NCBI GenBank assembly: GCA_963724295.1
Contig: CAVRUC010000013.1
Coordinates: 523,210-587,209, forward strand
DNA from: an uncultured Chloroflexia bacterium
GTDB lineage: Bacteria; Chloroflexota; Chloroflexia; Thermomicrobiales; UBA6265
Length of the DNA stretch: 64,000 bases
Reading direction: 5' to 3'
Shown: one piece after another, positions 1-16,060 of the stretch
Layout: every line of letters starts with the position of its first letter
Numbering within the stretch: position 1 is the first letter of the stretch
Position numbers and translations under genes: made by a program
Notes under the pieces: model-generated
The model's database searches: none
What the model was told of the DNA's origin: nothing
Seen by the model: the letters and a program-made list of their open reading frames with translations, nothing else

Positions 1-13
1 GGCAAGTTATCAG

Positions 14-832
14 TCATTCGCCGCGTGAGAAGTCCGGCATCCAGAATTGCTCTCCCCAGCGGTCCCCTTGCGGAATCAGGCGCTCCTTTCGTTCGGCTCC
101 ATCCAAGATTCTCTTGATGATCGGATGAGTGGGTTTGTGCGGCGTCCGTTCCGCCAGATACATGTAGCCGATTCCGTCTGCGGGAAGCGCATTGAACCGC
201 GTTGTCAGCGTCACAACCATGTCCGCTGCGTGAGGGTCTACGAAGTCACCGAACATTGCTTTGGTCGACCACACCGCAGCAAGCCCTTCGACAGACGAGT
301 CCAAAAGGGCGCGGACGTTTCGTTCACAGCGCTGTATCCAATACGGCCAGATGACGCACTCATCCCCGAAATGCGCTTCAACAGCCTCCTTTCGCACTAA
401 CGGCGACGAAAGGGGCCGAGCGTACTGGGGGATGAAATGCGACGGTCCAACAAACTCGACTAGCACCCGGCGTCTTCCCAGTCTCACGGCGAGATCGACG
501 CGCCTCCTGCCAAACGCAACCTGAGGTTCGACCTGCGCGTCGGGCCAGACGATTTCCACAAGTCGCTTGAGAATCAACTCGTCGAGGCTGCGCGAAGCGG
601 TCCCTATTCGAGGGGCGTGTGGACTTTGAAGTTTGCCTGATCCCCATGCCCGGTGCATATCCAGCTCGCTGACGAACTTCTCTCCGTCGTGCTCCACGAC
701 CTTCAAGTTGCTGAGCGCGGTCTCGTGTACACCGAGGATCTCAGCCGCATCCGGGACGCTGAGACAGGACCCGCACCACTGATCAGAGTCATGCAGGCGA
801 AAGATTCCGTGAGACGCCCCGATCCAAGCCAT
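14..832 (-). CDS. hypothetical protein: HTH-like N-terminus + DUF559/Vsr-like (restriction-endonuclease fold) core + unknown C-terminal domain
   Basis: Part of ORF 14..1057. The first 75 codons look non-coding (they contain repeat copy 0), so the start is placed at Met76 (cat 830-832). 'SVPDAAEILGVHETALSNL' is HTH-like. 'QVAFGRRRVDLAVRLGRRRVLVEFVGPSHF...RKEAVEAHFGDECVIWPYW' resembles the DUF559/Vsr endonuclease core. The family call rests on motif memory only. Confidence 0.5.
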   Translation of the reverse strand: MAWIGASHGIFRLHDSDQWCGSCLSVPDAAEILGVHETALSNLKVVEHDGEKFVSELDMHRAWGSGKLQSPHAPRIGTASRSLDELILKRLVEIVWPDAQVEPQVAFGRRRVDLAVRLGRRRVLVEFVGPSHFIPQYARPLSSPLVRKEAVEAHFGDECVIWPYWIQRCERNVRALLDSSVEGLAAVWSTKAMFGDFVDPHAADMVVTLTTRFNALPADGIGYMYLAERTPHKPTHPIIKRILDGAERKERLIPQGDRWGEQFWMPDFSRGE

Positions 833-999
833 GACGGGTTCTTTTGTCCTCACGCATTGAGTCGTCGCTAGGCAGTTCCAGCCGCACCACGGTGAGGCTG
901 CCGGTTCAGCCGTCGCGGCCCGGGTCTCTGCCCCAACTAACCATCGCCCCAATAGGCGCCCCAAGTGACCCAAGAGGCCATCGCACTGTTCGGTACCTT

Positions 1000-1046
1000 C
1001 ATTGCTTGGGATGACCGACAGCCGAGCTAGATGTTCGGTTTTGGGT
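1000..1046. repeat. island-boundary repeat, copy 0 (partial, most diverged)
   Basis: 'gagctagatgttcggttttggg' (1024-1045) matches 'gacctagatgttcagtttttggg' (10706-10728) with 2 mismatches and one 1-nt indel. Similarity to the left part of the repeat is weak. Confidence 0.45.
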
Positions 1047-1171
1047 GTGCTTGACACACCGTAGCCATCGAGTTGAGATTAGTCGCCAGTGGCCGTGTGC
1101 TCTGCGATTCGCAGCTGCGAAACAGTTGCAAGTTACGCCGCGATTCGGGTCGTTGCAAAGGAGCCTAACCC

Positions 1172-2218
1172 ATGAGAACCGCTCACCGACGATTGTTGCA
1201 GGCCGCCGCGACGGTAATGGTCGTCATGGCGCTTGGCACGTTGCCCCTCTCTAACTCGCTGTGGCTGGTGGCGGCGCAGTCCACTGACGTGGCCTCGGCT
1301 GCGCAACAAACCGGGATACCCGCTGCTCTACACGACGGGAGTTGCCCCGACACCGGCGCGGTTGTCGCCCCTCTTACGAACGCGGTCCTTCCTTCGGGAT
1401 CACCTGTTGGCAACATCGATGCCCTACCCGCAGCTAACTCATTTACGACCGTTCCGCTGTCGCTCGCCACGATCCTTGCATCGGATCACGCGATTGTCAT
1501 CGCAGATCCGATCGACAACGCGCCCATCGCCTGCGGTGAGATCGGCGGTTCCCTTGCTGAGGAAGAGTCGCTGGCCGTCGGACTTGCGGGCCAGCAGTCG
1601 TCCGGAGTTCATGGCATCGCGTTCCTCAGCCCCGGAAGCGATGGTGGGTCGACCGGAGTTTCGTTGTTTGTCACCGTGCCCGGCGACCTGACACAGGCGC
1701 CCGTGCCGAGCCAACCAACACCGGTGCCAGCGGCTGAACAGACTACGGCAGACATCGCTCCCATCGAATCGGGCGGCCTCGGATTACCGATCGAGGAGTT
1801 CTACGCACGTTATGGGGAGGCCGCCCCTGATCCGGTGATGGACGGTGAAGTTATCAGGACGGCCAATGGCCGCATCCGCGTCAGAGCTGCGGGCAACGAC
1901 AAGGTGAACGCTGTCACACGCTACTTCGATGAAGGGGTGACGTTCGACGAAGCGAGGGCTACTGGGCTGGGATTCGCGCCCGCGGATTCGGTGTTGCTAC
2001 AGACCTACACGACGTCCGTCGGCTCAACGGTGGATCTGTACTACAGCCCGTCGTTGGAAGCTCAGTTCTCAGAAACTCACGACGTTGACGGGATGGAGTT
2101 TCCGACTTGGGTCAACGGGGAGCCGGGGCAGTTCATCATCGGCTACGGAGGATATAACCCGGCGAATGAAGTCAACGAAGTCACACGGATCGTGATGGCT
2201 CTTGGGAACAATCCCTGA
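1172..2218 (+). CDS. secreted protein of unknown function (N-terminal domain paralogous to 16234..16833)
   Basis: AAGGAG RBS upstream of the ATG. Signal peptide 'MRTAHRRLLQAAATVMVVMALGTLPLS'. The domain 'GSCPDTGAVVAPLTN...IACGEIGGSL...LAVGLAGQQSSGVHGIAFLSP' aligns with 'GTCGSPGEVVAPLAN...VACGDVGGAL...LAVGMVGMNGSGLSGVAYFTP' of the 16.2-kb gene. Confidence 0.75.
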   Translation: MRTAHRRLLQAAATVMVVMALGTLPLSNSLWLVAAQSTDVASAAQQTGIPAALHDGSCPDTGAVVAPLTNAVLPSGSPVGNIDALPAANSFTTVPLSLATILASDHAIVIADPIDNAPIACGEIGGSLAEEESLAVGLAGQQSSGVHGIAFLSPGSDGGSTGVSLFVTVPGDLTQAPVPSQPTPVPAAEQTTADIAPIESGGLGLPIEEFYARYGEAAPDPVMDGEVIRTANGRIRVRAAGNDKVNAVTRYFDEGVTFDEARATGLGFAPADSVLLQTYTTSVGSTVDLYYSPSLEAQFSETHDVDGMEFPTWVNGEPGQFIIGYGGYNPANEVNEVTRIVMALGNNP

Positions 2219-2313
2219 GCCTTACCGACACCCCGCGATCTCTTGGGACGCATTGGCGCTCCATGTTGCCGCCATAGGCTGAAAGAAGACCACTCCGTGA
2301 GGCTGAGACGCCG

Positions 2314-3024
2314 GTGACTAGGAATCCGAACTGGACCGAGGACGAGGCGATCCTTGCCCTCGACCTCTACATCCGTTCCGGCTACCGCGTTCTGTCCGGA
2401 AACCATCCTGATGTGGTCGAACTCAGCGAGTTCATGAACTCGCTGCCGATCCATCCTCCCGAATTGCGGACGAGCAAGTTCCGCAATCCATCGGGGGTAA
2501 ACACCAAGTTGGCCAATTTTCGCCACGTTGACCCTGACCGACCGGGCGGATTGTCTGGTGCCTCGAAAATGGACTACTTCGTATGGAATGAGTACGCCCA
2601 TGACATTCCTCGCCTGCGAAAGGTGGTCGAGGCCATACGTCGAAACTACCGGCAACCTGAAGTTGAGCGGGAACTCGACGATCCCGACGAAAGTGCGCCC
2701 GAGGGGCGCGTCTTGCTTCGTTCGCACAAACTACGAGAACGGAATCGGACCCTCGTAAAGAAACGAAAAGAGCGAGCTTTAGCGGAGCATGGCAGACTCA
2801 CATGTGAGGCGTGCGGGTTCGATTATCAGGCAACGTATGGAGCGCTCGGCGATGGCTTTATCGAGTGCCATCACACGGTGCCGGTTTCCGAATTGAGTCC
2901 CGGCCACGAGACGAAGGTCAGTGACCTCGCACTTTTGTGCGCTAACTGTCATCGTATGCTCCATAGGAGCAAGACCGCGCTCACCATTGCACAGCTGAAA
3001 AGTCTATTGGTGCATAGTCGGTGA
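2314..3024 (+). CDS. HNH endonuclease (McrA/COG3183-like putative restriction nuclease)
   Basis: C-terminal HNH motif 'CEACGFDY...ECHHTVPVSEL...LALLCANCHRMLHRS' (CxxC...HH...N...CxxCH). GTG start. Confidence 0.85.
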   Translation: MTRNPNWTEDEAILALDLYIRSGYRVLSGNHPDVVELSEFMNSLPIHPPELRTSKFRNPSGVNTKLANFRHVDPDRPGGLSGASKMDYFVWNEYAHDIPRLRKVVEAIRRNYRQPEVERELDDPDESAPEGRVLLRSHKLRERNRTLVKKRKERALAEHGRLTCEACGFDYQATYGALGDGFIECHHTVPVSELSPGHETKVSDLALLCANCHRMLHRSKTALTIAQLKSLLVHSR

Positions 3025-3049
3025 TGCCAATTCTTTTGTCACGGTCTTC

Positions 3050-4117
3050 TTGCCCACACAGAGACCATCTGGCACGATCCCGCCTATGCAACAGCTAGAG
3101 CCTCCACTAACTGCACTCATTGCGACTGCGGTGGAATTGTTCGTCGCGTGGCTGATCTTCCGCGTCGTGCCTAAGTCATGGGGTGAGAACCGAGTCGCGG
3201 CGTACGTCATCGTTTCTGTGTTTCTCGTCGCCGTCAATTGGGCGTTGATTAGTCTCTCTGTCTCGGGATGGCTGGCGAAACCGGAGAACGCGTCCACCGT
3301 TCAAGCGGTCTCAACGGCTGCCCAAGCGATGTTTGCCGTGGTGTTGATCGGCGTTGCGGTCTTCACGCTCCGAGCGAACGCGGATATGGCGCGAGAGACT
3401 AAGCGGATGGCGGAGGTCGCCGTGCAACAGCAGCGCGCTGCGACGAGGCCGGTCCTCGCGTTTCGCATCCATCCGCCAGAAGGTGGCAGTGCTCCCGATG
3501 CAAGCGAGTTCGTGACCGAGGCGTTCAACGTGGGGGCGGGGCCAGCGCTCGACGCACGCGTGTTCTACACCGGACCGTTCAATTTTGCCGAACCGACAGA
3601 CTACGTTCAGCCGTGCACCATCGCGGCGGGTGAAGCAGCGACGTTTACCTTTAAGCTCGACAAGGACTCGCCTTGGCAGGACCAATCCGATCCACTGAAG
3701 TGGCCGCGCACGGAAGAGGACGCCGAACTCGAACAAGAGTCACATGCACTCAGAAACGCTCCCGCAGCGTTGCTACAGGATTCGCCGGAGAATAAACGCC
3801 GGGGAGAAGTTCACAGAAAACTTCAAATCAGGTCGAATCGGTACTTCGCCGACCTGACCGCTCGTATTGCCGAGCGACACGACATCGGCCAGATTCGGGC
3901 CGAATATCGCGATCTGAGCGGGGCCGCGCATGAATCGACCGCTGACTTGCTCGTCATCAATCCCCAATCGCGTCGAGCTGTTGAGCAGAAAGCGGATCAA
4001 TTGGGTGAATTGCCAGAGTCTCCGTCTTTCCATCCGTACTGGCCCGACCTCATGCTTGGGCGATTGTCCGTGGACCCGACTCCAGCACTGCCAGACCTCA
4101 GCAGGAGTGGTCGCTGA
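3050..4117 (+). CDS. membrane-anchored protein, unknown family (paralog set A)
   Basis: TM helices ('ALIATAVELFVAWLIF','VAAYVIVSVFLVAVNWALISL','AMFAVVLIGVAVFTL'), then a helical 'ARETKRMAEVAVQQQ' segment, then a beta-rich domain 'RPVLAFRI...FNVGAGPALDARVFY'. The N-terminal half aligns with the 6074..7246 product. Start uncertain (TTG 3050 or ATG 3086). Confidence 0.7.
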   Translation: MPTQRPSGTIPPMQQLEPPLTALIATAVELFVAWLIFRVVPKSWGENRVAAYVIVSVFLVAVNWALISLSVSGWLAKPENASTVQAVSTAAQAMFAVVLIGVAVFTLRANADMARETKRMAEVAVQQQRAATRPVLAFRIHPPEGGSAPDASEFVTEAFNVGAGPALDARVFYTGPFNFAEPTDYVQPCTIAAGEAATFTFKLDKDSPWQDQSDPLKWPRTEEDAELEQESHALRNAPAALLQDSPENKRRGEVHRKLQIRSNRYFADLTARIAERHDIGQIRAEYRDLSGAAHESTADLLVINPQSRRAVEQKADQLGELPESPSFHPYWPDLMLGRLSVDPTPALPDLSRSGR

Positions 4118-4836
4118 TGTCACTCAGGCTTCCTACACTCAGTGCGCAACGGGGTATTCCGACTCTCGTAGCTGGCGAGGCTTTGCTGATCCTGCTGGCA
4201 ATCGCTCTTGGAAGAGACCCCAACAGAATCGCGGATTACGCGACCATCCTGATCTCGCTGACGACGCTGTTCGCGCTTGCAATCTTCCATCGCGAGGTTC
4301 TGGATACTCAGTCGCGCCTGCACCGGGAAGTCATGGGTGAACAGGCGAATATACGCCGCTTGCAGACCCGCCCACAGGTACTCGTCTATTTCGCTCGCTC
4401 GCGGGATCGGAAGATGCTGGAGATGCTAGTGCTGGTCATCGAGCATTTCGGTGGGGGTCCGGCGCTCGATGTGCAGTTCACCTTCTCTCCTCCGCTCGTC
4501 AACTCCGAGGGCACAACGTTCGCCAACGAGCCACCCTTTTCAACAGGGATTGCGGTGATGGAACCGGGGTTCCGCCGCGAGATCAAATTTGACGACTACC
4601 ACCAGTTTCAAAAGCGTGCCGGAACGACCAGAATCGGCAGCAGGGTTATTAGGGCAGACATCGAAGAAACCCGGCTCGATTTTGAGGCAACCGTGACACT
4701 TCGCGATCCGATCGGTGACGATCTGCGATATGAAACCCGCTACAAACTCGATCTGAGAGACCTCATGCCGTACACGATGGACTTCCTCGCCGAAGCCGAA
4801 CCACAACCAGAGGCATGGATAAGGGGCGAGCCATAA
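4117..4836 (+). CDS. membrane-anchored protein, unknown family (paralog set A)
   Basis: The ATG overlaps the upstream stop (TGATG), implying translational coupling. TM segments 'LVAGEALLILLAIAL' and 'ILISLTTLFALAIF'. 'RPQVLVYF..IEHFGGGPALDVQFTFSPPL..EPGFRREIKFDDY' aligns with 'LPVILVRF..IHNYGGPATDVVFSFDPPL..PPGWDQEVRFDDY' of 6074..7246. Confidence 0.75.
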   Translation: MSLRLPTLSAQRGIPTLVAGEALLILLAIALGRDPNRIADYATILISLTTLFALAIFHREVLDTQSRLHREVMGEQANIRRLQTRPQVLVYFARSRDRKMLEMLVLVIEHFGGGPALDVQFTFSPPLVNSEGTTFANEPPFSTGIAVMEPGFRREIKFDDYHQFQKRAGTTRIGSRVIRADIEETRLDFEATVTLRDPIGDDLRYETRYKLDLRDLMPYTMDFLAEAEPQPEAWIRGEP

Positions 4837-4931
4837 GACCCGCCCCGTTGCCTGATCTGCCGGGTGTGAGGTGTCAGACCGCGCCCTACGCGGCGTGTTC
4901 CGGCGACGGCACATTTCCTGCTGGTGATGGA

Positions 4932-5001
4932 CTCAGGCCGCGATTTCCCGCGCCGCATCGTCAGCGGTGAAGCGGAAGATGATTGGTGCCTGACCTAGAT
5001 G
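4932..5001. repeat. island-boundary repeat, copy 1
   Basis: 58/66 nt identical to 10650-10715 (my manual alignment). It ends at '...ggtgcctgacctagatg'. Confidence 0.85.
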
Positions 5002-5048
5002 GTCCGTCGATGAGGATCATGGGTGTCCGTCTCCAAGTGCTCGCTCTA

Positions 5049-5978
5049 CTAAGCAAAGATGGAAGTAAGTACAGAGAAATCGACGTTACCACTCAGGATT
5101 TGTCGCACTGCCAATTTGAGCGCTTCTTCGCTGATCGTCTTGCCTGCGCTCCCTGCGGCTTCCGACGCCCGTTTGATCCACTGGCCGACGCGACTCTCTT
5201 CACGGTCAACATCTTCAACCCTCGATTCCTCAACAATCGGGGTAAGGTCGTCGACCTCGATTCCTTGCGCACGAAACAGGTCGTTCAATCTGTTGACGAG
5301 GATCAGGCTTTGCTGACTCACCATGTTGCTGGCAATGGGCATGGTTCCGGTCGCGACGCCTACTGTGGGGTTCCCACCGTGAAAAATGAACTGATTGAAG
5401 ACCTGCCCAATCGCTTGATCGGTGTCGGGGTCGTTTGGCAGAGCAGCTTCACTAACCTCCGGGTAGAGCGTCTCGATTTCAAGGACGAACTGGAGCAGGC
5501 CCGTGCAAATAGACGACAGAATCCCTTTGATTGAAGCAAGCGAAACCACCTGACGATCCGATACAAGTGCTTCAAGTCTTTGTTGGAGGACGACTTCGAG
5601 ATGGCGATGCGCTATTCCCGCAGGAAGAAAGCGTACGTCCGTGCCTTCACTCGCCCACGAAACAAGCTGCGCAACACTTTCTCGAACGTCAACGGATGAT
5701 GCCGATTTGTACGCAGCTTCGTCAGTGAACATGTCCCACGGCGCAGTTCTCTGTTGTTGGTACCCCACTCCCGATGCGTGATACCAAATCGAAGCCGGGA
5801 CAACGCGATAGTCTGGAAGTTCGGCGTCCTTCCCATAACCACGAAGTTCACTGTCAACCCACACTCGGAACGGTTCGTAACCCAGTCGCGTCGCGAGGAG
5901 GTATGCCCGTCTCAACGTCTTGTCGAAATCTGGGCCGCACTCGATCGCACCATCGCGGATGGCGTCAAGAAGGGACAT
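5049..5978 (-). CDS. AbiTii-like abortive-infection domain protein
   Basis: The N-terminus 'TLRRAYLLATRLGYEPFRVWVDSELRGYGKDAELPDYRVV' fits my recollection of the AbiTii N-terminal pattern (LLR..a..lA..l....F..Wv..EL.GY....vP.YR). The rest is unassigned. Confidence 0.6.
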   Translation of the reverse strand: MSLLDAIRDGAIECGPDFDKTLRRAYLLATRLGYEPFRVWVDSELRGYGKDAELPDYRVVPASIWYHASGVGYQQQRTAPWDMFTDEAAYKSASSVDVRESVAQLVSWASEGTDVRFLPAGIAHRHLEVVLQQRLEALVSDRQVVSLASIKGILSSICTGLLQFVLEIETLYPEVSEAALPNDPDTDQAIGQVFNQFIFHGGNPTVGVATGTMPIASNMVSQQSLILVNRLNDLFRAQGIEVDDLTPIVEESRVEDVDREESRVGQWIKRASEAAGSAGKTISEEALKLAVRQILSGNVDFSVLTSIFA

Positions 5979-6073
5979 TGCTCACGCCTCCCCAGCGAGG
6001 ACTCGTCTGCTGACATTTGACTCTGTGCAGCCACATTATCGCAAGGTAGAAGGGGCGACCGACGCCGCACTTC

Positions 6074-7246
6074 TTGCCCTCACAGGAACAATCTGGCACG
6101 ATCGAAATCATGTCCGACCTGATGCCCGAGATCACCGCCTTCTTGCTCGCTGCAACTGTAGTCCTGTGGGCGTCCTTCGCGTTCCTCCTCGGTCCGACCC
6201 TCTGGAAGTCGGATCGGCGGGCGTTCTACCTCTGCCTTGGCGTGGGAATCGTCTATGGGTGGCTACTCACCCGCTTTCTTGCGTCCGGGTGGCTGGGGAA
6301 GCCAGAGAACGCGACCACCGTGGAAGCGCTCGCGGCAGCCGCGCAAGCACTCTTCACTGTGGCGCTCATTGTTCTTACGGTGCGTACCGTTCAAGCGAAC
6401 GCCAAGATAGCGGATGAAACAAAGCTGATGGCGGCGGAGACAGCAAGAATGGCTTCGGAGACTGAGAAGATGGCTGCGGTTGCCGCCGAACAGCTTCGGA
6501 ACACCACACTCCCAGTGATCCTTGTGCGCTTTCGCTCCACCTTTGACATGGAGCGTGGTGCCGAGAAAGGGAGAATCTGGATCAACATCCACAACTACGG
6601 CGGTCCGGCAACCGATGTGGTGTTCTCTTTTGATCCGCCGCTAATTCGCTCGAATGGCGAAGACATAGGACTGAGGCCGACGTTCCTCACCGGCGTTCCA
6701 GTCGTACCTCCGGGTTGGGATCAGGAAGTGAGGTTTGACGACTACGACGATTACATTGATGACCTCTTTCTACAGGGAGGACGGACATACCTATTCGACG
6801 CAACCATTACTTCTCGCGATCCGTACTCCGGAGATTTCTTTCCACCAACCACAATCAGAATGGATCTCCGCCACCTCTCTCTTCAGCCGCTCGAAGGCAA
6901 TTGGGATCCGGCCACCGAGTTTAGAGACGAGCGGAACTGGCGAACCGACCCGCGGACTGACGTCGATTCTGCGCAGCTACAACGGGTTCTCGAATCATTT
7001 ACGGAGGAAGAGGTACCGAGAGAAGTGATAGGACCGTTGGATCAGCACTTCCGCCGGTCCTTTCAAAGGGCCGGCTGGTCAGTAGCCATCGGGAAACATG
7101 ACATTTGGTGGCGGGCAGTCGCAACGAAGCAATCAGGTATCCATCAGGGGACTAGTGTCGGGGCGAGCGCTTGGTCTACGCAAGCGACGCTTGCGTTCAC
7201 ACTGAGGAAAGCTCTCGATTTGGACGCGGAGGTGAGCGCGGGCTGA
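6074..7246 (+). CDS. membrane-anchored protein, unknown family (paralog set A, fused architecture)
   Basis: The N-terminal TM region plus 'GWLGKPENATTVEALAAAAQALFTVALIVLTV' aligns with the 3050 product ('GWLAKPENASTVQAVSTAAQAMFAVVLIGVAV'). The C-terminal beta domain aligns with the 4117 product. There is an internal triple repeat 'ETKLMAA/ETARMAS/ETEKMAA'. Start is TTG 6074 or ATG 6110. Confidence 0.75.
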   Translation: MPSQEQSGTIEIMSDLMPEITAFLLAATVVLWASFAFLLGPTLWKSDRRAFYLCLGVGIVYGWLLTRFLASGWLGKPENATTVEALAAAAQALFTVALIVLTVRTVQANAKIADETKLMAAETARMASETEKMAAVAAEQLRNTTLPVILVRFRSTFDMERGAEKGRIWINIHNYGGPATDVVFSFDPPLIRSNGEDIGLRPTFLTGVPVVPPGWDQEVRFDDYDDYIDDLFLQGGRTYLFDATITSRDPYSGDFFPPTTIRMDLRHLSLQPLEGNWDPATEFRDERNWRTDPRTDVDSAQLQRVLESFTEEEVPREVIGPLDQHFRRSFQRAGWSVAIGKHDIWWRAVATKQSGIHQGTSVGASAWSTQATLAFTLRKALDLDAEVSAG

Positions 7247-7265
7247 GAAGGGGCACACTATTCTT

Positions 7266-7293
7266 ATGACAGCGAGGCGGCTCTTAGTATAAG
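7266..7293 (+). promoter_or_regulatory. candidate sigma70-type promoter for the 7319-8767 module
   Basis: 'ATGACA' (7266-7271), a 16-nt spacer, then 'TATAAG' (7288-7293). The small palindrome 'ctcttagtataagag' overlaps the -10. GGGAGGAAG RBS upstream of ATG 7319. Pattern match only. Confidence 0.3.
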
Positions 7294-7318
7294 AGTCGCG
7301 GGAGGAAGACACTCTAGC

Positions 7319-8227
7319 ATGACAAGCACACAAGTCCGGTCTGCTTACATCGTCGCCTCAAAAGGTACGAATGTGGTGCCCCTTGTTGAAGCACTCGATT
7401 CTAGGGGGGTCTCAACGAAAACTAGCCCTCTCATCTTGGGCCAAGCTCGGATCGACCAAGAAATCATATCGGCTATTCGATCAGCAGATATGGTGATCGG
7501 TGTTCTTTGGGAGCGAGGCCCGGATCCCAACGTCATGGTTGAGTTAGGCATCGCGGTCGGGCTAGGTCGATCGCTCCTACTGTTTGGCGGTGAAGGCTCG
7601 AACGTACCTTCCAATCTTCGAAACTCTGTAGTGGTTGTCCGCATGTTGTCATGGAACGAAGCAATATTCCAGACCCACCTAGATCCATTCTTAGAGCAGT
7701 TGTCGTCCCGTCGAGAGCAACCGGAACGTAACACTCAAACCAGTTCGACTACCCAGCCATTGAGTCTTCATGCCTTCGAGGCCGCACTGAACCACTTAGG
7801 TTCCATTGAGTCAGCAGGCCACACTCCGAATGAGTCGGAAGTCGTTGGTCTATTGGCGACCTTTTTTCAGGCGTCCGGCTATTTGGTGTCAATCGAGCAT
7901 CGGCAGCTGCAGACAGGGCGGACGCGGCCAGATCTGGCAGTTTGGGTCGAGGATCTCCCTGCCCGAGTCGGCAGTCCTTTGCTCATCGAAGTTGCTCTTC
8001 GCAACGCGATGATCAACCAGAGACTAGCGCAGTTTCAGCACCTCTTACATGATTTCAAAAGTGAAGGAGGGCTAATAGTCACTTGGAGCGATACGAAAAG
8101 CTCAGGTATTTCAGGCAATCCGAATGACCCAAGAATCCCGATCTTGAGCGTTCGAGATCTAGTCAACGCGTTGAAGTTAGGAGTGTTCGCGGAGGTCTAT
8201 TTGCGTCGTTCTACAGCAAAATCGTAA
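7319..8227 (+). CDS. TIR-like / nucleoside 2-deoxyribosyltransferase-like domain fused to a degenerate PD-(D/E)xK (Mrr-like) domain
   Basis: N-terminal ~125 aa: 'AYIVAS...IISAIRSADMVIGVLWERGPDPNVMVELGIAVGLGRSLLLFGGEGSNVPSNLRNSVVVV'. This has the aD.vi.vl...pNV..ELG.a.glGr...l....vPSnL pattern of TIR-like/NDT-like Rossmannoid domains. C-terminal: 'VVGLLATFFQASGYLVSIEH...RPDLAVWVED...SPLLIEVALRNA...GGLIVTWSD' has an Mrr-cat-like layout, but the E-x-K lysine is replaced (E-V-A). About 53% GC. Confidence 0.6.
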   Translation: MTSTQVRSAYIVASKGTNVVPLVEALDSRGVSTKTSPLILGQARIDQEIISAIRSADMVIGVLWERGPDPNVMVELGIAVGLGRSLLLFGGEGSNVPSNLRNSVVVVRMLSWNEAIFQTHLDPFLEQLSSRREQPERNTQTSSTTQPLSLHAFEAALNHLGSIESAGHTPNESEVVGLLATFFQASGYLVSIEHRQLQTGRTRPDLAVWVEDLPARVGSPLLIEVALRNAMINQRLAQFQHLLHDFKSEGGLIVTWSDTKSSGISGNPNDPRIPILSVRDLVNALKLGVFAEVYLRRSTAKS

Positions 8228-8233
8228 GTTACT

Positions 8234-8767
8234 ATGGGTGACATTGATCCTTCAGTCATCAATGAATATCTGAGTGTTCGAATTGTGGATGGAGATACCA
8301 CGAGTCAGGGCCGAGCGCTCGAAGAGCTAATGTGCTATGTGCTGGAGAAAGTGCCCGGTTTCATTGTCACACATAGGAACACTATGAACGTCTTCCATAC
8401 TGAAGAAGTAGATGTCGCAATTTGGAATGATCCACATGAGCATGGCATCAGAACGTTTCCCGGAGCTTGGCTCGTCGAGTGTAAGAATTGGAGCGGTAGG
8501 GTTGGAAGCCAAGAGGTCGGATATTTCGCGAGAAAGCTTCTGAATCGACGAGTCGATGTCGGAGTGCTTGTCGCGCTGAATGGAATCACTGGTGTTCCGC
8601 AAGAACTTACGAACGCACACTACGAAATGGCGACAGCGCTCAAAGATGGTGCCCGTATTATTGTGCTTGATCGCGACGATTTGCTCAGACTTACTCATGG
8701 GAAAGAGCTTGCTGCGCTTATAAAGGCGAAGATTTGCGAGTTAGTGTTGACTGCCACCAACGCGTAA
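8234..8767 (+). CDS. Mrr-type (type IV-like) restriction endonuclease domain protein
   Basis: 'GRALEELMCYVLEKVPGF...EEVDVAIWND...AWLVECKNWSGRVGSQEVGYFARKL..VGVLVALNGITG'. The D...E-C-K catalytic motif is canonical and the Mrr_cat topology is typical. It starts 6 nt after the upstream stop. About 52% GC. Confidence 0.8.
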   Translation: MGDIDPSVINEYLSVRIVDGDTTSQGRALEELMCYVLEKVPGFIVTHRNTMNVFHTEEVDVAIWNDPHEHGIRTFPGAWLVECKNWSGRVGSQEVGYFARKLLNRRVDVGVLVALNGITGVPQELTNAHYEMATALKDGARIIVLDRDDLLRLTHGKELAALIKAKICELVLTATNA

Positions 8768-8780
8768 CACCCGTCTTTGA

Positions 8781-8860
8781 TTATGCCATCCTGATCGCAT
8801 CCTCCGCCGTGAACCGCAGCACCACCGGTTCCCGACGTAGAGGTTCTGTATATGGGGTTT
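8781..8860. repeat. island-boundary repeat, copy 3 (diverged)
   Basis: The minus-frame translation '...TPYTEPLRREPVVLRFTAEDAIRMA*' parallels copy 2 '...CPKTEHLGQAPLILRFTADDAVREIAA*'. On the plus strand, 'ccgacgtagaggttctgtatatgggg' matches 'ctgacctagatgttcagtttttgggc' at 19/26. Confidence 0.6.
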
Positions 8861-8991
8861 GTGGGTGAGACGCCCAACGTTGTCCGGGTCGGTGGGCGAA
8901 CGGCGACAAGCGGCTACTATCGGGTGTGACCTAATAGATCTCAATCACCCCCGGAGACCTAATCCCTAAGCGGGGCTAACTCGGCTGTGTC

Positions 8992-9336
8992 TCACTCCTG
9001 ACGCTTGGGTGGCCGACCTCGTCGTCGCTGTCCTTCTGGAGATGATGTCTGCTTCCCCTTGCGGGTCCGCGGCTCATCGGTCTTTCTGACGGCGACGAAG
9101 CCGTCCCCCTCGACGGTCTCCACCGTGAGTCCGCGACTTCGTGCAGCCCGACTGATGGCCGCACGCAGCCCCCTCGCGCTCTGCCCCTCCACAAGCGGCA
9201 CCCGCACCGGACTACCAGTTTCGATTTCAGTGAGGAGGGCGACCATCGCCGGATCGGTCTTGCGCATCTTTTGCTGTCGCAGCGAGGCGAACTCTTCTTC
9301 CGAAAACGGCGCAAATGATTCGATCTTGACAGGCAC
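8992..9336 (-). CDS. small hypothetical protein with basic AT-hook-like tail
   Basis: 114-aa ORF with plausible composition and a C-terminal 'GQRRRGRPPKRQE'. Preferred over the overlapping Arg-rich 174-aa frame (8976..9500). Confidence 0.5.
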   Translation of the reverse strand: MPVKIESFAPFSEEEFASLRQQKMRKTDPAMVALLTEIETGSPVRVPLVEGQSARGLRAAISRAARSRGLTVETVEGDGFVAVRKTDEPRTRKGKQTSSPEGQRRRGRPPKRQE

Positions 9337-9638
9337 TCGTGTCTCCTTATTGCCGCATTTCCGATCACTGCGGTGATCCTAGCACGGAGAACATTCGCAG
9401 TTTGAGACAGACGCGTAGCCATAACAACGCACTCTGACCAGAACGGTCTGACGATCCATCCGCCAATCTCCCGCTCGCGAACGTCATTTGCGATTAGCAC
9501 AAGAGCACAATAGCCAAGCGACCATAGGGTCGAGAGCGGCTGAATCGAATTGCCATCTCGCCTAGACTGGTTCAGAACGTTCTATAGGCCGATCCACCTG
9601 ATCTGGCGGCGATCTGCCCATAGGGTAGGGATTGTTGA

Positions 9639-10556
9639 ATGAGCACCTATAAAGAGAAATTCATGAGCAAAGAAGAGTTCATGAGCCAGCCGCCCGATCC
9701 TGAGCGTGAGGAGCGTTGGCGACTTGCACGACGCGATGACCTCGCGAACGTCTTTGGTGTGGTGCTAACCGTTCCAATCCACGGACAGGACGAGCTAGGA
9801 AACTGGCGATATGGGTTACCTCCGCACAGCGGCATACCAAGCCAAGACATCACGAAAGAGTTCGAGGCCGAGATGCGCTCAATTATTGTTGAGAGTGCGT
9901 CTCCTCTAGTCATAGCTGGCATCCTGTCGGAGCAACAAGTCCAACAGATCAAGAGTCACAGCTACGAAACCGGACCGGCGGCGCAGGGTTGGCCCCAGAC
10001 CTTCTTCGAGATCTATCAGCAAGTGGCGCCGATCATTGCCGGATCGGCTGACCTTATTGCTGTAGCCGACTTCGTCAAGCAGGTCGCCAGTCGCATACGG
10101 AGTTGGCAACAGCGAAGTCATGAGGAGATTGAGCGGAATCATGGAGATACGCTAGATCGCACCACACCAGTGGATCTCGATCCTCATATCGTCTGGACAC
10201 TCCCCAATCTGGTAGCCCTGTGCTACACGGATCTGGTTCAGCGCCACCATAGAAGCGGCGACTGCAACATTACCGTCTTCCCTCGAAATCGATGGGCAGG
10301 GTATGGATCTGCGGATCATCCATCGGGAGGCGAAACCTACCTTATCCGCCTCACAACGGGTGCGTCGAGTTACTTCTATCTCGTTGACGGACACGGCGGA
10401 GTCTCCGAGCACTATCGAACCAATGGTGACGATCTGGAACTACTTGCGCTTCCGGACTTACTGCCTAACGACAGGTCAGGCAACCCGTACAGGCAACCGG
10501 AGCAACCCCGGCGATTCGAGGTGCGGGCATCGGTGTCGCTAAACGAGCAAGCGTGA
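9639..10556 (+). CDS. hypothetical protein (no recognisable domain)
   Basis: 305-aa ORF with non-repetitive, balanced composition, divergent from 8992..9336 across a 300-bp spacer. Start ambiguous (several Met in the first 15 codons). Confidence 0.55.
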   Translation: MSTYKEKFMSKEEFMSQPPDPEREERWRLARRDDLANVFGVVLTVPIHGQDELGNWRYGLPPHSGIPSQDITKEFEAEMRSIIVESASPLVIAGILSEQQVQQIKSHSYETGPAAQGWPQTFFEIYQQVAPIIAGSADLIAVADFVKQVASRIRSWQQRSHEEIERNHGDTLDRTTPVDLDPHIVWTLPNLVALCYTDLVQRHHRSGDCNITVFPRNRWAGYGSADHPSGGETYLIRLTTGASSYFYLVDGHGGVSEHYRTNGDDLELLALPDLLPNDRSGNPYRQPEQPRRFEVRASVSLNEQA

Positions 10557-10645
10557 GCGCATACGGGAGCTGTCCGCGCACTGTTGTTACAGGAGCAAAC
10601 TAAGCCATCCTGCAGTGGAACTCCGAGCATGAAATACGACCCCCG

Positions 10646-14398: not shown

Positions 14399-16060
14399 AT
14401 GGCAGCCGAGATCGGACCTGAGGAACAGATCGACGCATTCTGGGAACTGACCGAAGATCAGATTTCCGTGCTTCGCCGGCATGGCCAGGTCCAGCAGACC
14501 CACGATGGCCAGGTGCTCTTCCATCAGGGCGAGCTCACCTGCGACTTCTACGTCGTTCTCGAAGGGGAGGTCGAGCTCATCGAGCCAACCCTCGTCACCC
14601 CTCGGGTCATCGGTGTGCGCAAGCCGCGCGAGATCGTCGGCGAGCTCAACCTCCTGACCGAGGAAGTCACCTACCTCTCCGCCGTCGTGCGGAAAGGGGG
14701 GAGCGTGCTGGCCATCCCCGCCGACGATCTGCGCACGATCGTCACCGATGACCCGGGGTTCAGCGACTTCCTCCTGCGCGCGTTCCTGCTCCTGCGCTCG
14801 CATCTGGTCGAGCTCGGTGCCGGGCTGAAGATCATCGGCTCCCACTTTTCGCCCGACACCAGACGGCTGCGGCAGTTCGCCGCGCGCAGCCGTCTTCCCC
14901 ACGATTGGATGGACGTTGAGAAAGACCCGCTAGCGGAATCACTGCTGCGCCAGTTCAATGTCAAGCCGGACGAGACGCCGGTGGTGATCTGGAAGGGCGC
15001 CGAGATCCTGCGCAATCCCTCGAACGCCGATCTGGCGCGAGTGCTCGGGATCGGCGACGTCCTCGATCCGGAGGCGCACTACGACTTGATCGTCGTCGGC
15101 TCGGGACCGGGCGGGTTGGCCGCCGCTGTCTACGGCGCTTCGGAAGGGCTCAAGACGCTCATCGTGGAGTCGGTCGCTACCGGCGGCCAGGCGGGAATGG
15201 CGTCCCGCATCGAGAATTACCTCGGCTTCCCGGCGGGGTTGTCCGGGGTCGAGCTGGCGAGCAGAGCGCTGTTGCAGGCCGAAAAATTCGGCGCCAGCAT
15301 CGCGGTCCCCCGCGAGGCCGTCGCCCTGCGTCGTGATGGACACACCTATGCCATCACCCTCGATGACGGGGAAGAGATCGCCGCCGGCAGCGTCATCCTG
15401 GCCCTCGGCGCGCGGTACCGCAAGCTCGACGTCCCGGGCGAGGCCGAGCTGGAAGGCGGCAACGTCTACTACGCTGCGACCGAAGTCGAGGCCCAGGTCT
15501 GCCAGGGGCAGAACATCGCGGTCGTGGGCGGCGGTAACTCCGCCGGGCAGGCGGCGTTGTTCCTGGCGGAGCGCGCGAACAAGGTCTACCTGCTGGCGCG
15601 CTGCGATGATCTGAATGAGGACATGTCTCGCTACCTCATCGACCGCATCGTGGCGACATCCAACATCGAGCTGCTGGTCCAGACGTGCGTCGCCGAATTG
15701 GTGGGCCAGAACGCGCTGACCGGAGTCAAGGTCGAGCACAAGTACACCGGCAAGGGGCGCACGATCGGCGTCGCGGCCCTCTTCATCTTTATCGGGGCGG
15801 ATGCGCCGACGGCGTGGTTGGCGGACACGCTGGCGCTCGACGAGAAGGGCTTCATCTCGACCGGGCTCTCCGTCAAGACCGCTCCCGCGTGGCAAGACGC
15901 GGCTCGCGATCCGTTCCTGTTTGAGGCCAGCCTACCGGGAGTCTTCGCCGTGGGCGACGTCCGCAGCGGAGCCATCCGGCGCGCAGCCTCGGCGGTCGGC
16001 GAGGGATCAATGGCGGTCCGGCTCTGCCACGCCTACCTGGCCGAGACCCGAGGCGCCTGA
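14399..16060 (+). CDS. cyclic-nucleotide-binding domain + thioredoxin-reductase-like FAD/NAD(P) disulfide oxidoreductase
   Basis: AAGGAG RBS. CAP_ED-like 'FHQGELTCDFYVVLEGEVELI...REIVGELNLLT'. Also 'DLIVVGSGPGGLAAAVYGASEGL', 'VVGGGNSAGQAALFLA' and 'GVFAVGDVRSG'. Confidence 0.9.
   Translation: MAAEIGPEEQIDAFWELTEDQISVLRRHGQVQQTHDGQVLFHQGELTCDFYVVLEGEVELIEPTLVTPRVIGVRKPREIVGELNLLTEEVTYLSAVVRKGGSVLAIPADDLRTIVTDDPGFSDFLLRAFLLLRSHLVELGAGLKIIGSHFSPDTRRLRQFAARSRLPHDWMDVEKDPLAESLLRQFNVKPDETPVVIWKGAEILRNPSNADLARVLGIGDVLDPEAHYDLIVVGSGPGGLAAAVYGASEGLKTLIVESVATGGQAGMASRIENYLGFPAGLSGVELASRALLQAEKFGASIAVPREAVALRRDGHTYAITLDDGEEIAAGSVILALGARYRKLDVPGEAELEGGNVYYAATEVEAQVCQGQNIAVVGGGNSAGQAALFLAERANKVYLLARCDDLNEDMSRYLIDRIVATSNIELLVQTCVAELVGQNALTGVKVEHKYTGKGRTIGVAALFIFIGADAPTAWLADTLALDEKGFISTGLSVKTAPAWQDAARDPFLFEASLPGVFAVGDVRSGAIRRAASAVGEGSMAVRLCHAYLAETRGA

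Follow-up and report, generated by a model that had tools for sequence, protein, structure and literature searches.

In the short prokaryotic Argonaute (pAgo) systems of the SPARTA/SPARDA family, TIR-class and Mrr-like nuclease domains are brought together in one immune effector, which is activated by oligomerisation on nucleic acid. The effector of retron Ec86 (Eco1) is a dimer in which a nucleoside 2-deoxyribosyltransferase (NDT)-like domain is fused to a DNA-binding winged helix-turn-helix (wHTH) domain; it is regulated through the DNA bound to it, and its action exhausts adenine derivatives or NAD+ (bioRxiv 10.1101/2023.08.16.553469; PMC13276650). Thoeris types I-XI combine a ThsB TIR sensor with an effector, and the validated effector domains named in the text of the preprint are DUF2270, DUF6650, SLATT, CMP hydrolase, ion channel and hydrolase (Yirmiya et al. 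2025, bioRxiv 10.64898/2025.12.03.692087). We compared these and other systems with a pair of genes in 64,000 nucleotides of DNA from an uncultured Chloroflexia bacterium (assembly GCA_963724295.1, contig CAVRUC010000013.1, positions 523,210 to 587,209; this whole stretch is called the window, and coordinates refer to it). Gene 1 (7319..8227, + strand, ATG start, 302 aa) encodes an NDT/TIR-class N-glycosidase domain fused to an Mrr-like domain of restriction endonuclease (REase) fold, and gene 2 (8234..8767, + strand, ATG start, 177 aa) encodes a minimal Mrr-like PD-(D/E)xK nuclease. Judged from sequence comparison, the pair is most likely a self-contained, horizontally mobile conflict module acting against phages or mobile genetic elements (MGEs), and it is a good candidate for a new defence system.

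A first-pass annotation of the window, made from the letters of the sequence, knew of no named system with this pairing, and the databases bear it out. No model in PADLOC-DB v2.0.0 (2023) covers both proteins, gene 2 has no match there at all, and the RefSeq labels for the pair are just 'hypothetical protein' and 'restriction endonuclease'. Full-text literature searches, which covered Yirmiya et al. 2025 apart from the Thoeris candidates with DNase effectors in its Figure 1C, returned no description of the pair. It is apparently a defence-type module of known domains in a conserved architecture for which we found no published description.

The same annotation had set co-occurrence across genomes beforehand as a test able to refute its proposal of a two-gene module. 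We found a gene-1 homologue directly 5' of gene 2, on the same strand, in every testable locus (77 distinct loci). The upstream open reading frames (ORFs) are approximately 290-330 aa long and are all recognised by the gene-1 family profile; the sole exception, L043, is a locus record cut at gene 2. Starting from the gene-1 side, a gene-2 homologue lay 3' in each of the three cases sampled, in one of them as two separate ORFs. In most loci the offset from the end of gene 1 to the start of gene 2 is approximately 0 or -3 nt, that is, the genes abut or overlap, and the two proteins diverge in step across loci (r = 0.79 for their pairwise identities). No further gene is conserved with the pair: 110 Pfam families occur among the 148 proteins of the flanks, none of them more than three times. 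The pair is a strictly conserved unit.

Gene 1 has one close relative among 5.8 billion proteins, P0002, which is 58% identical and of the same length. It is followed, across an identical 6-nt gap, by P0003, a 177-aa Mrr_cat protein. P0002 came from a single-sequence word-index search; the family was recovered by profile and context searches, and the scarcity of direct matches reflects fast divergence, not rarity. An exhaustive HMMER search at E <= 1e-30 placed the gene-1 family in 239 clusters at 50% identity. Gene 2 has at least 452 homologues, the best 120 of which are nearly all of approximately 177 aa and are approximately 43-54% identical to it except for P0003 (75%). The hundreds of homologues found for each ORF show that both are genuine genes and not chance reading frames. 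In one metagenomic contig (L093:2837-3369), the gene-2 homologue 3' of gene 1 is broken into overlapping ORFs of 94 and 103 aa, owing either to a frameshift that made it a pseudogene or to faulty assembly.

When one genome per species was considered, gene 2 occurred in 165 of 185,579 species genomes (0.09%). Its bacterial hosts belong to the Pseudomonadota, Verrucomicrobiota, Acidobacteriota, Planctomycetota, Cyanobacteriota, Bacillota, Actinomycetota, Chloroflexota, Spirochaetota, Bacteroidota and others, more than ten phyla in all, and its archaeal hosts are Methanobacterium, Bathyarchaeia and a metagenome-assembled genome (MAG) of Nanoarchaeota. A Pectobacterium homologue had no blastn match in 5,426 E. 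coli genomes. Such a distribution bears on the possibility that the locus holds no more than an NDT of nucleotide salvage and a nuclease that works alone, housekeeping genes without relation to each other that happen to be neighbours. The Pfam match of gene 1 is indeed to nucleoside 2-deoxyribosyltransferase. However, strict synteny over more than ten phyla and the archaea, the fusion of the NDT-like domain to a nuclease fold, the foreign GC content, the island context and the patchy spread over so few species all speak against chance adjacency, which we hold to be extremely improbable; the synteny and fusion data effectively refute it.

We examined the predicted domains of each protein, beginning with gene 2. 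It matches the Pfam family Mrr_cat (PF04471) with an E-value of 3.3e-8 and has no further match in Pfam, PADLOC or NCBIfam. Its catalytic residues, E30 (8321-8323), D60 (8411-8413) and E82-C-K84 (8477-8485), are intact, as the first-pass annotation had read from the D...E-C-K motif, and E30, D60, E82 and K84 are invariant in 34 aligned homologues. The AlphaFold2 (AF2) model of gene 2 has a mean predicted local distance difference test score (pLDDT) of 89 and a predicted template modelling score (pTM) of 0.87, and its Foldseek matches include the EcoT38I restriction endonuclease and Rpb5, the N-terminal domain of which has a REase-like fold. A profile search of gene 2 against the PDB found no solved structure detectable by sequence. 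The REase-fold alignment spans residues 20-166 of the 177. Gene 2 is, by prediction, the nuclease core alone, with no room for a ligand-sensing domain.

The C-terminal domain of gene 1 (approximately aa 150-302; 7766..8224, + strand) is predicted to have the same Mrr-like PD-(D/E)xK fold. Alignment of the gene-1 and gene-2 family profiles with hhalign gave a probability of 94.9% and an E-value of 4.6e-8 over gene-1 residues 164-295 and gene-2 residues 20-166, and it pairs E176, D205, E224 and K226 of gene 1 with E30, D60, E82 and K84 of gene 2. The gene-1 family profile recognises gene-2 proteins at an E-value of approximately 1e-5, and 21 of 59 gene-1 members match Mrr_cat directly. From these alignments, the C-terminal domain of gene 1 and gene 2 are evidently paralogues. 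Across the 157 gene-1 representatives the nuclease motif is well kept: 156 have D205, 151 have E224 and 152 have a K or R at position 226. E176 is the majority residue of the family, and an R-N-x-x-x-H-G motif near the C-terminus is nearly invariant.

The window protein departs from this pattern. Its translation has V176, D205 (7931-7933) and E224-V-A226 (7988-7996, + strand), and, like P0002, it combines V176 and A226 with loss of the RNxxxHG tail (equivalent residues 297-302; 8207-8224). The tail is lost jointly with E176 and K226, which suggests that it is functionally part of the gene 1 nuclease site. We also considered a HEPN reading of RNxxxHG, which resembles the HEPN motif Rx4-6H, and rejected it: no HEPN Pfam model matches the family. 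The decayed motif is thus a rare derived state of the lineage (5 of 157 representatives), not the way in which the system is generally built. The first-pass annotation was therefore right about an Mrr-like C-terminal domain with ExK changed to E-V-A, but an inactivated DNA-binding sensor domain does not describe the pair in general, given that 152 of 157 representatives retain K or R.

The N-terminal domain of gene 1 (approximately aa 6-130; 7334..7708, + strand) is Rossmann-like and of the NDT/DNPH1/TIR class, with the codon of Glu75 at 7541-7543. The peptides quoted by the first-pass annotation, SADMVIGVLW...DPNVMVELGIAVGLGRSLLLF...VPSNLR in this domain and the two nuclease motifs D205...E224-V-A226 and D60...E82-C-K84, are all present. 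Its assignment of an NDT/TIR-like domain with a conserved Glu also stood: gene 1 scores 29.5 bits against Pfam PF05014 (Nuc_deoxyrib_tr; cut-off 28.8) over aa 37-89, and it gives a partial, weak match (E 5.6e-5) to the PADLOC 'TIR effector' model (PDLC00733) of CBASS, the cyclic-oligonucleotide-based anti-phage signalling system. The best PDB folds found by Foldseek for the AF2 model of gene 1 are DNPH1, MilB, BcmB and NDT (E 5e-5 to 2e-4), with TIR-1 and TIR-STING slightly below them; the top match in BFVD is of the Cap12/PycTIR kind. We then compared a profile of 59 gene-1 members with the PDB, which gave NDT 2a0k at 1e-8, other NDTs at approximately 1e-7, DNPH1 at 1e-5, PycTIR 8jsj at 4e-4 and classical TIRs at merely 0.02-0.1. 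Of these 59 members, 51 match the Pfam model NDT, 44 match TIR_2 and 15 match CAP12/PycTIR (PF10137), and none matches ThsB_TIR; the window protein itself passes the NDT model alone.

The residues of the active site agree. Window gene 1 aligns directly with the NDT of Chroococcidiopsis thermalis (…PDpnVMVELGiAvgLgrslllF vs …PDegVMVELGmAiaLnkaiflF), and Glu75 falls on the NDT catalytic Glu88, which is replaced in the 'E88A/E88Q' entries and bears the modification of the 'WT ribosylated' entry. E75 is kept in 148 of 157 family representatives. Tyr10, Asp57 and Asp69 are also present in the domain, and we take them to be possible counterparts of further NDT active-site residues. A TIR-DrHyd(NDT) class has been described by Aravind's group (PMC9503650). 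Because of the fold matches, the profile matches, the alignment of Glu75 with Glu88 and the Pfam counts across the family, we place the domain by sequence in this class, on its NDT side; it is nearer the NDT/DNPH1 N-glycosidases than the signalling TIRs of ThsB type.

Gene 1 resembles NDT, DNPH1, MilB and BcmB in that these are its best fold and profile matches and carry their nucleophile Glu in an (F/V)E-x-G motif. Those proteins, however, are stand-alone enzymes of approximately 150 aa in salvage or antibiotic pathways, whereas in gene 1 the domain is joined to a nuclease fold, has a nuclease as its partner without exception and lies in a mobile island. In its fold and in the residues that surround the Glu (NV-x-FE-x-G) it resembles the TIR-like NADase effectors Cap12 of CBASS and PycTIR of Pycsar (PF10137). 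Unlike those systems, the operon has no cyclase or cyclic-nucleotide sensor domain, and neither a cyclase (CD-NTase or pyrimidine) nor a cyclic-nucleotide sensor was found in the window island or among the families listed for the 148 flanking proteins.

How might the two proteins work together? We consider it about an even bet that invader DNA is engaged by a heteromer of the REase-fold domains, with DNA cleavage, N-glycosidase activity or both as the result. The two proteins would be made in fixed stoichiometry through translational coupling, and their paralogous REase-fold domains would assemble them into a hetero-oligomer that binds and cuts DNA. That complex would carry the N-glycosidase domain, which engagement with invader DNA could switch on because NDT- and TIR-class enzymes need dimerisation or oligomerisation. 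Cleavage of DNA together with hydrolysis of NAD+ or a (deoxy)nucleotide would then lead to restriction, abortive infection or both. In the window lineage, DNA would be cut by gene 2 alone because the gene 1 site has decayed (E176V, K226A, loss of the RNxxxH motif), and the REase fold of gene 1 would serve as a non-catalytic partner or DNA-binding module.

The effector of retron Ec86 is a precedent for an N-glycosidase that acts with a DNA-binding partner as a DNA-regulated dimer. The likeness lies in an NDT-like N-glycosidase fused to a nucleic-acid-binding domain, which the retron uses as an anti-phage effector. In the pair, however, the partner domain has a REase fold and not a wHTH, and a second nuclease protein is an obligatory part. 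Neither the scanned island ORFs nor the listed families of flanking genes included a reverse-transcriptase Pfam match, and no Rfam family was found in the window. The pair differs also from the short pAgo systems, since neither the module, nor the family, nor the flanking genes gave an Argonaute or APAZ Pfam match.

The first-pass annotation had instead cast gene 1 as a sensor or signal generator and gene 2 as a separate effector, much as in Thoeris; upon infection, gene 1 would convert NAD+ or a nucleotide into a diffusible signal that allosterically activates gene 2. The two-gene layout of TIR and effector is the Thoeris pattern: the pair shares with Thoeris a two-gene operon, a TIR-class domain with a conserved catalytic Glu (TIR_2 in 44 of 59 members, CAP12/PycTIR in 15), a partner predicted to damage the cell or its DNA, a location in defence islands and a patchy distribution. 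Small nucleases can also be activated by ligands at oligomer interfaces, as NucC is in CBASS. The 2025 preprint, moreover, lists 29 putative Thoeris types, some of them with predicted DNase effectors (10.64898/2025.12.03.692087). Several features point the other way. Gene 2 holds nothing beyond a nuclease core and so lacks a signal-binding domain such as SLOG or Macro; ThsB_TIR is matched by none of the 59 members; and the best sequence and fold matches of the N-terminal domain are NDT/DNPH1 hydrolases and transferases, not signalling TIRs. In addition, the TIR/NDT protein itself bears a paralogue of the effector nuclease, which, judging by its motif, is usually catalytically intact and would be useless to a pure signal generator. 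Mrr-type nucleases are absent from the validated Thoeris effectors with named domains, the type IX effector being excepted, and the main text and supplements of the preprint, Figure 1C apart, contain no Mrr or endonuclease effector strings. We therefore regard a diffusible signal as unlikely. Gene 1 may alternatively make a signal from something other than NAD+. A hetero-complex is preferred over signalling because the REase folds are paralogous, the genes occur strictly 1:1 and are probably translationally coupled, gene 2 has no ligand-sensing domain and the gene 1 nuclease site is usually intact.

The nuclease domains invite a second comparison, with Mrr and the type IV restriction enzymes. 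Gene 2 and most gene-1 C-terminal domains share with them the Mrr_cat PD-(D/E)xK core (E...D...ExK), and the pair likewise has no cognate methyltransferase. The Mrr_N (PF14338) winged-helix reader, however, is matched by neither window protein and, among the architecture variants examined, by the rare P0253 only; the nuclease of the pair is split into two paralogous proteins, with an NDT/TIR-class domain in place of the reader. One could accordingly propose a modification-dependent restriction system of type IV kind in which the NDT/DNPH1-like domain reads or excises a flipped-out modified phage base (5-hydroxymethylcytosine, 5-hydroxymethyluracil or a glycosylated base) and the heteromer cuts nearby. 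Mrr catalytic domains are typical of type IV enzymes, and both some flanking genes and the HNH protein of the window match the type IV methyl-directed REase model (mREase_IV). The nearest solved relatives of the N-terminal domain have pyrimidine nucleotides, hydroxymethylated or unmodified, as their substrates: DNPH1 bears the name 5-hydroxymethyl-dUMP N-hydrolase, and MilB that of a CMP/hydroxymethyl-CMP hydrolase. The Mrr_N domain of P0253 and the absence of a conserved methyltransferase would both fit a modification-dependent enzyme.

Against this, we know of no demonstration that an NDT-class domain acts on DNA as a polymer, the conserved catalytic Glu points to catalysis over simple reading, and the TPR and HEAT modules inserted in some members suggest protein triggers there. 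In its favour, Anantharaman et al. 2013 (PMC3710099) proposed DNA as the target of NDT domains in conflict systems. On balance, a modification-dependent system seems to us somewhat more doubtful than a diffusible signal, and clearly more so than the heteromer. The specific version in which the NDT/DNPH1-like domain flips out and excises a (hyper)modified base of the phage, and the heteromeric Mrr-like nuclease attached to it then cuts at the lesion, is slightly less probable still; such glycosylase-coupled restriction, if true, would be a new enzymatic role for the NDT fold.

One more possibility is a toxin-antitoxin or addiction system in which gene 2 is a toxic nuclease held in check by the nuclease-like domain of gene 1, so that the pair would mainly stabilise the mobile element that carries it. 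A tight, translationally coupled two-gene operon, with integrases, transposases and conjugative elements nearby, would suit such a role, as would a gene 1 nuclease domain predicted to be dead in this lineage, like pseudo-enzyme antitoxins. Yet approximately 97% of representatives keep both the nuclease motif and the N-glycosidase Glu in gene 1, which is in excess of what an antitoxin needs, and no DNA-binding autoregulator domain is present. We judge this improbable; many toxin-antitoxin systems are themselves defensive, so it also overlaps with a role in defence.

Several points weigh against a DNA-engaging heteromer as part of a mobile defence module. We infer the heteromer solely from paralogy, synteny and translational coupling. 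NAD+, a (d)NMP and a base in DNA are all possible substrates of the N-terminal domain, and the gene 1 model has only a moderate pLDDT of 70. No conserved methyltransferase accompanies the pair, which leaves the sparing of self-DNA to be accounted for. As for mobility and context, the module is found on 4 of 72,556 plasmids and is essentially absent from phages, and many of the flanking genes are ordinary housekeeping genes.

If the pair does defend against phages, it would be a small two-gene system of uncommon design, in which a nuclease is divided between two paralogous subunits and one of these is permanently joined to an NDT/TIR-class N-glycosidase. Two major immune strategies, DNA cleavage and the destruction of NAD+ or nucleotides, would then be combined in a single complex that needs no diffusible messenger. 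The pair would further clarify the immune role of NDT-like domains, which is now informed mainly by the retron Ec86 effector. The size of the family, at least 239 clusters at 50% identity in bacteria and archaea, suits comparative work, and it contains natural experiments in the form of lineages that lost one nuclease site (that of the window among them), lost the Glu, or gained TPR, HEAT, CBM48, kinase or Mrr_N modules.

Some of these gains lie in the linker between the two domains of gene 1 (7709..7765, + strand), where the AF2 model is of low confidence (pLDDT below 50 at aa 132-145) and identity across the family is 0.14. The linker is an insertion hot-spot for TPR, HEAT or CBM48 (AMPK1_CBM) modules, as in P0283, P0291, P0257 and P0174. 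In other members a protein kinase or an Mrr_N winged-helix domain is fused N-terminally; among the architecture variants that we examined, which included P0258 and P0253, Mrr_N was found in P0253 alone. The extra modules look like interchangeable sensor modules. Gene 1 also evolves much faster than gene 2, with a mean pairwise identity of 0.28 vs 0.48, and each domain of the window protein is just 24-27% identical, approximately, to the rest of the family. Fast divergence and gain of modules are traits typical of immune sensor proteins.

At the locus itself, the two ORFs lie on the same strand and in the same frame, 6 nt apart, just as first annotated; the spacer, GTTACT (8228-8233, + strand), runs from the stop of gene 1 to the ATG of gene 2. 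Translational coupling of gene 2 to gene 1 is likely, because this spacer has no Shine-Dalgarno sequence of its own and because the genes abut or overlap in most homologous loci. The ribosome-binding site reported 5' of gene 1 is also there: a Shine-Dalgarno-like run, GGGAGGAAG, can be read at 7300-7308 (+ strand), approximately 13 nt before the ATG. The sigma70-like promoter on which the first-pass annotation had based a start at 7266 found no support. A sigma70 consensus scan gave no + strand promoter within 6900-7319; its single match there lies on the - strand, and shuffled sequence yields no fewer matches. By eye, the best promoter-like candidate is TTATGA-18-TATAAG, with approximately 8 of 12 consensus positions. 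A same-strand ORF (6074..7246) stops only 72 nt 5' of gene 1, and gene 1 may be co-transcribed with it.

The low GC content noted at the outset was confirmed. GC is 0.519 in gene 1 and 0.487 in gene 2, with GC at third codon positions (GC3) of 0.535 and 0.483, as compared with 0.698 and a GC3 of 0.877 in the adjacent luciferase-like gene and an average GC of 0.663 over window positions 10601-64000. Positions 1-10600 as a whole have a GC of 0.569, and the pair is their lowest-GC part. A GC3 of 0.48-0.54 against 0.88 in the host gene marks the pair as foreign; the foreign island around it spans at least 10.6 kb and extends beyond the left edge of the window. Scans of the window for tRNAs and Rfam families gave no match, and they identified neither an attachment site nor a non-coding RNA component.

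The island is of the defence type, as had been proposed from the AbiTii-like gene beside the pair. That gene (5049..5978, - strand) matches AbiTii with an E-value of 1.7e-27, and an HNH gene (2314..3024, + strand) matches the PADLOC HNH and mREase_IV models and so encodes an HNH/type-IV-like nuclease. The ORFs at 14..1057 (- strand) and 1172..2218 (+ strand), the abutting pair 3050..4117 and 4117..4836 (+ strand), the ORF 6074..7246 (+ strand) directly 5' of gene 1, and the ORF 9639..10556 (+ strand) have no significant Pfam, NCBIfam or PADLOC match and give just marginal PHROG or sub-threshold Pfam matches. They may be further uncharacterised defence genes.

In other genomes, defence genes or MGEs neighbour the module in most of the loci that we inspected. 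The P0002/P0003 locus has a large N6_Mtase/Methylase_S protein, a restriction-modification methyltransferase, alongside. Elsewhere the neighbours include CTD12/MC6/MC8/DUF2326/HicB, an integrase, a resolvase, AbiEii and SduA, as well as TrbE/TraG and a transposase. On an Agrobacterium plasmid the neighbours are a Hachiman-like DUF1837 protein with a helicase, NTase-HEPN and IS110. The flanking proteins include integrases, ThsA/ThsB, LmuB/AriA/GajA-like ATPases, mREase_IV and PDC candidates. Among the candidate conflict systems that adjoin the module are an AAA ATPase and S8 peptidase pair, which looks ietAS-like, and a CTD12/MC6-MC8/DUF2326/DUF3800 cluster (L091:8150-11432 and L001:7646-11721, respectively).

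Two minor observations may be added. In the high-GC host part of the window, positions 14399-16060 encode a 553-aa protein with an N-terminal cyclic-nucleotide-binding domain and a pyridine nucleotide-disulphide oxidoreductase domain. In a Chthoniobacterales MAG (L005:3787-4995; also L006-L008), the gene directly 5' of the module encodes a fusion of an Hsp70 substrate-binding domain (SBD) with a TIR/NDT-like domain. The fusion covers positions 390-548 of the Pfam HSP70 model, and its C-terminal domain matches the profile of the gene-1 N-terminal domain with an E-value of 5e-12.

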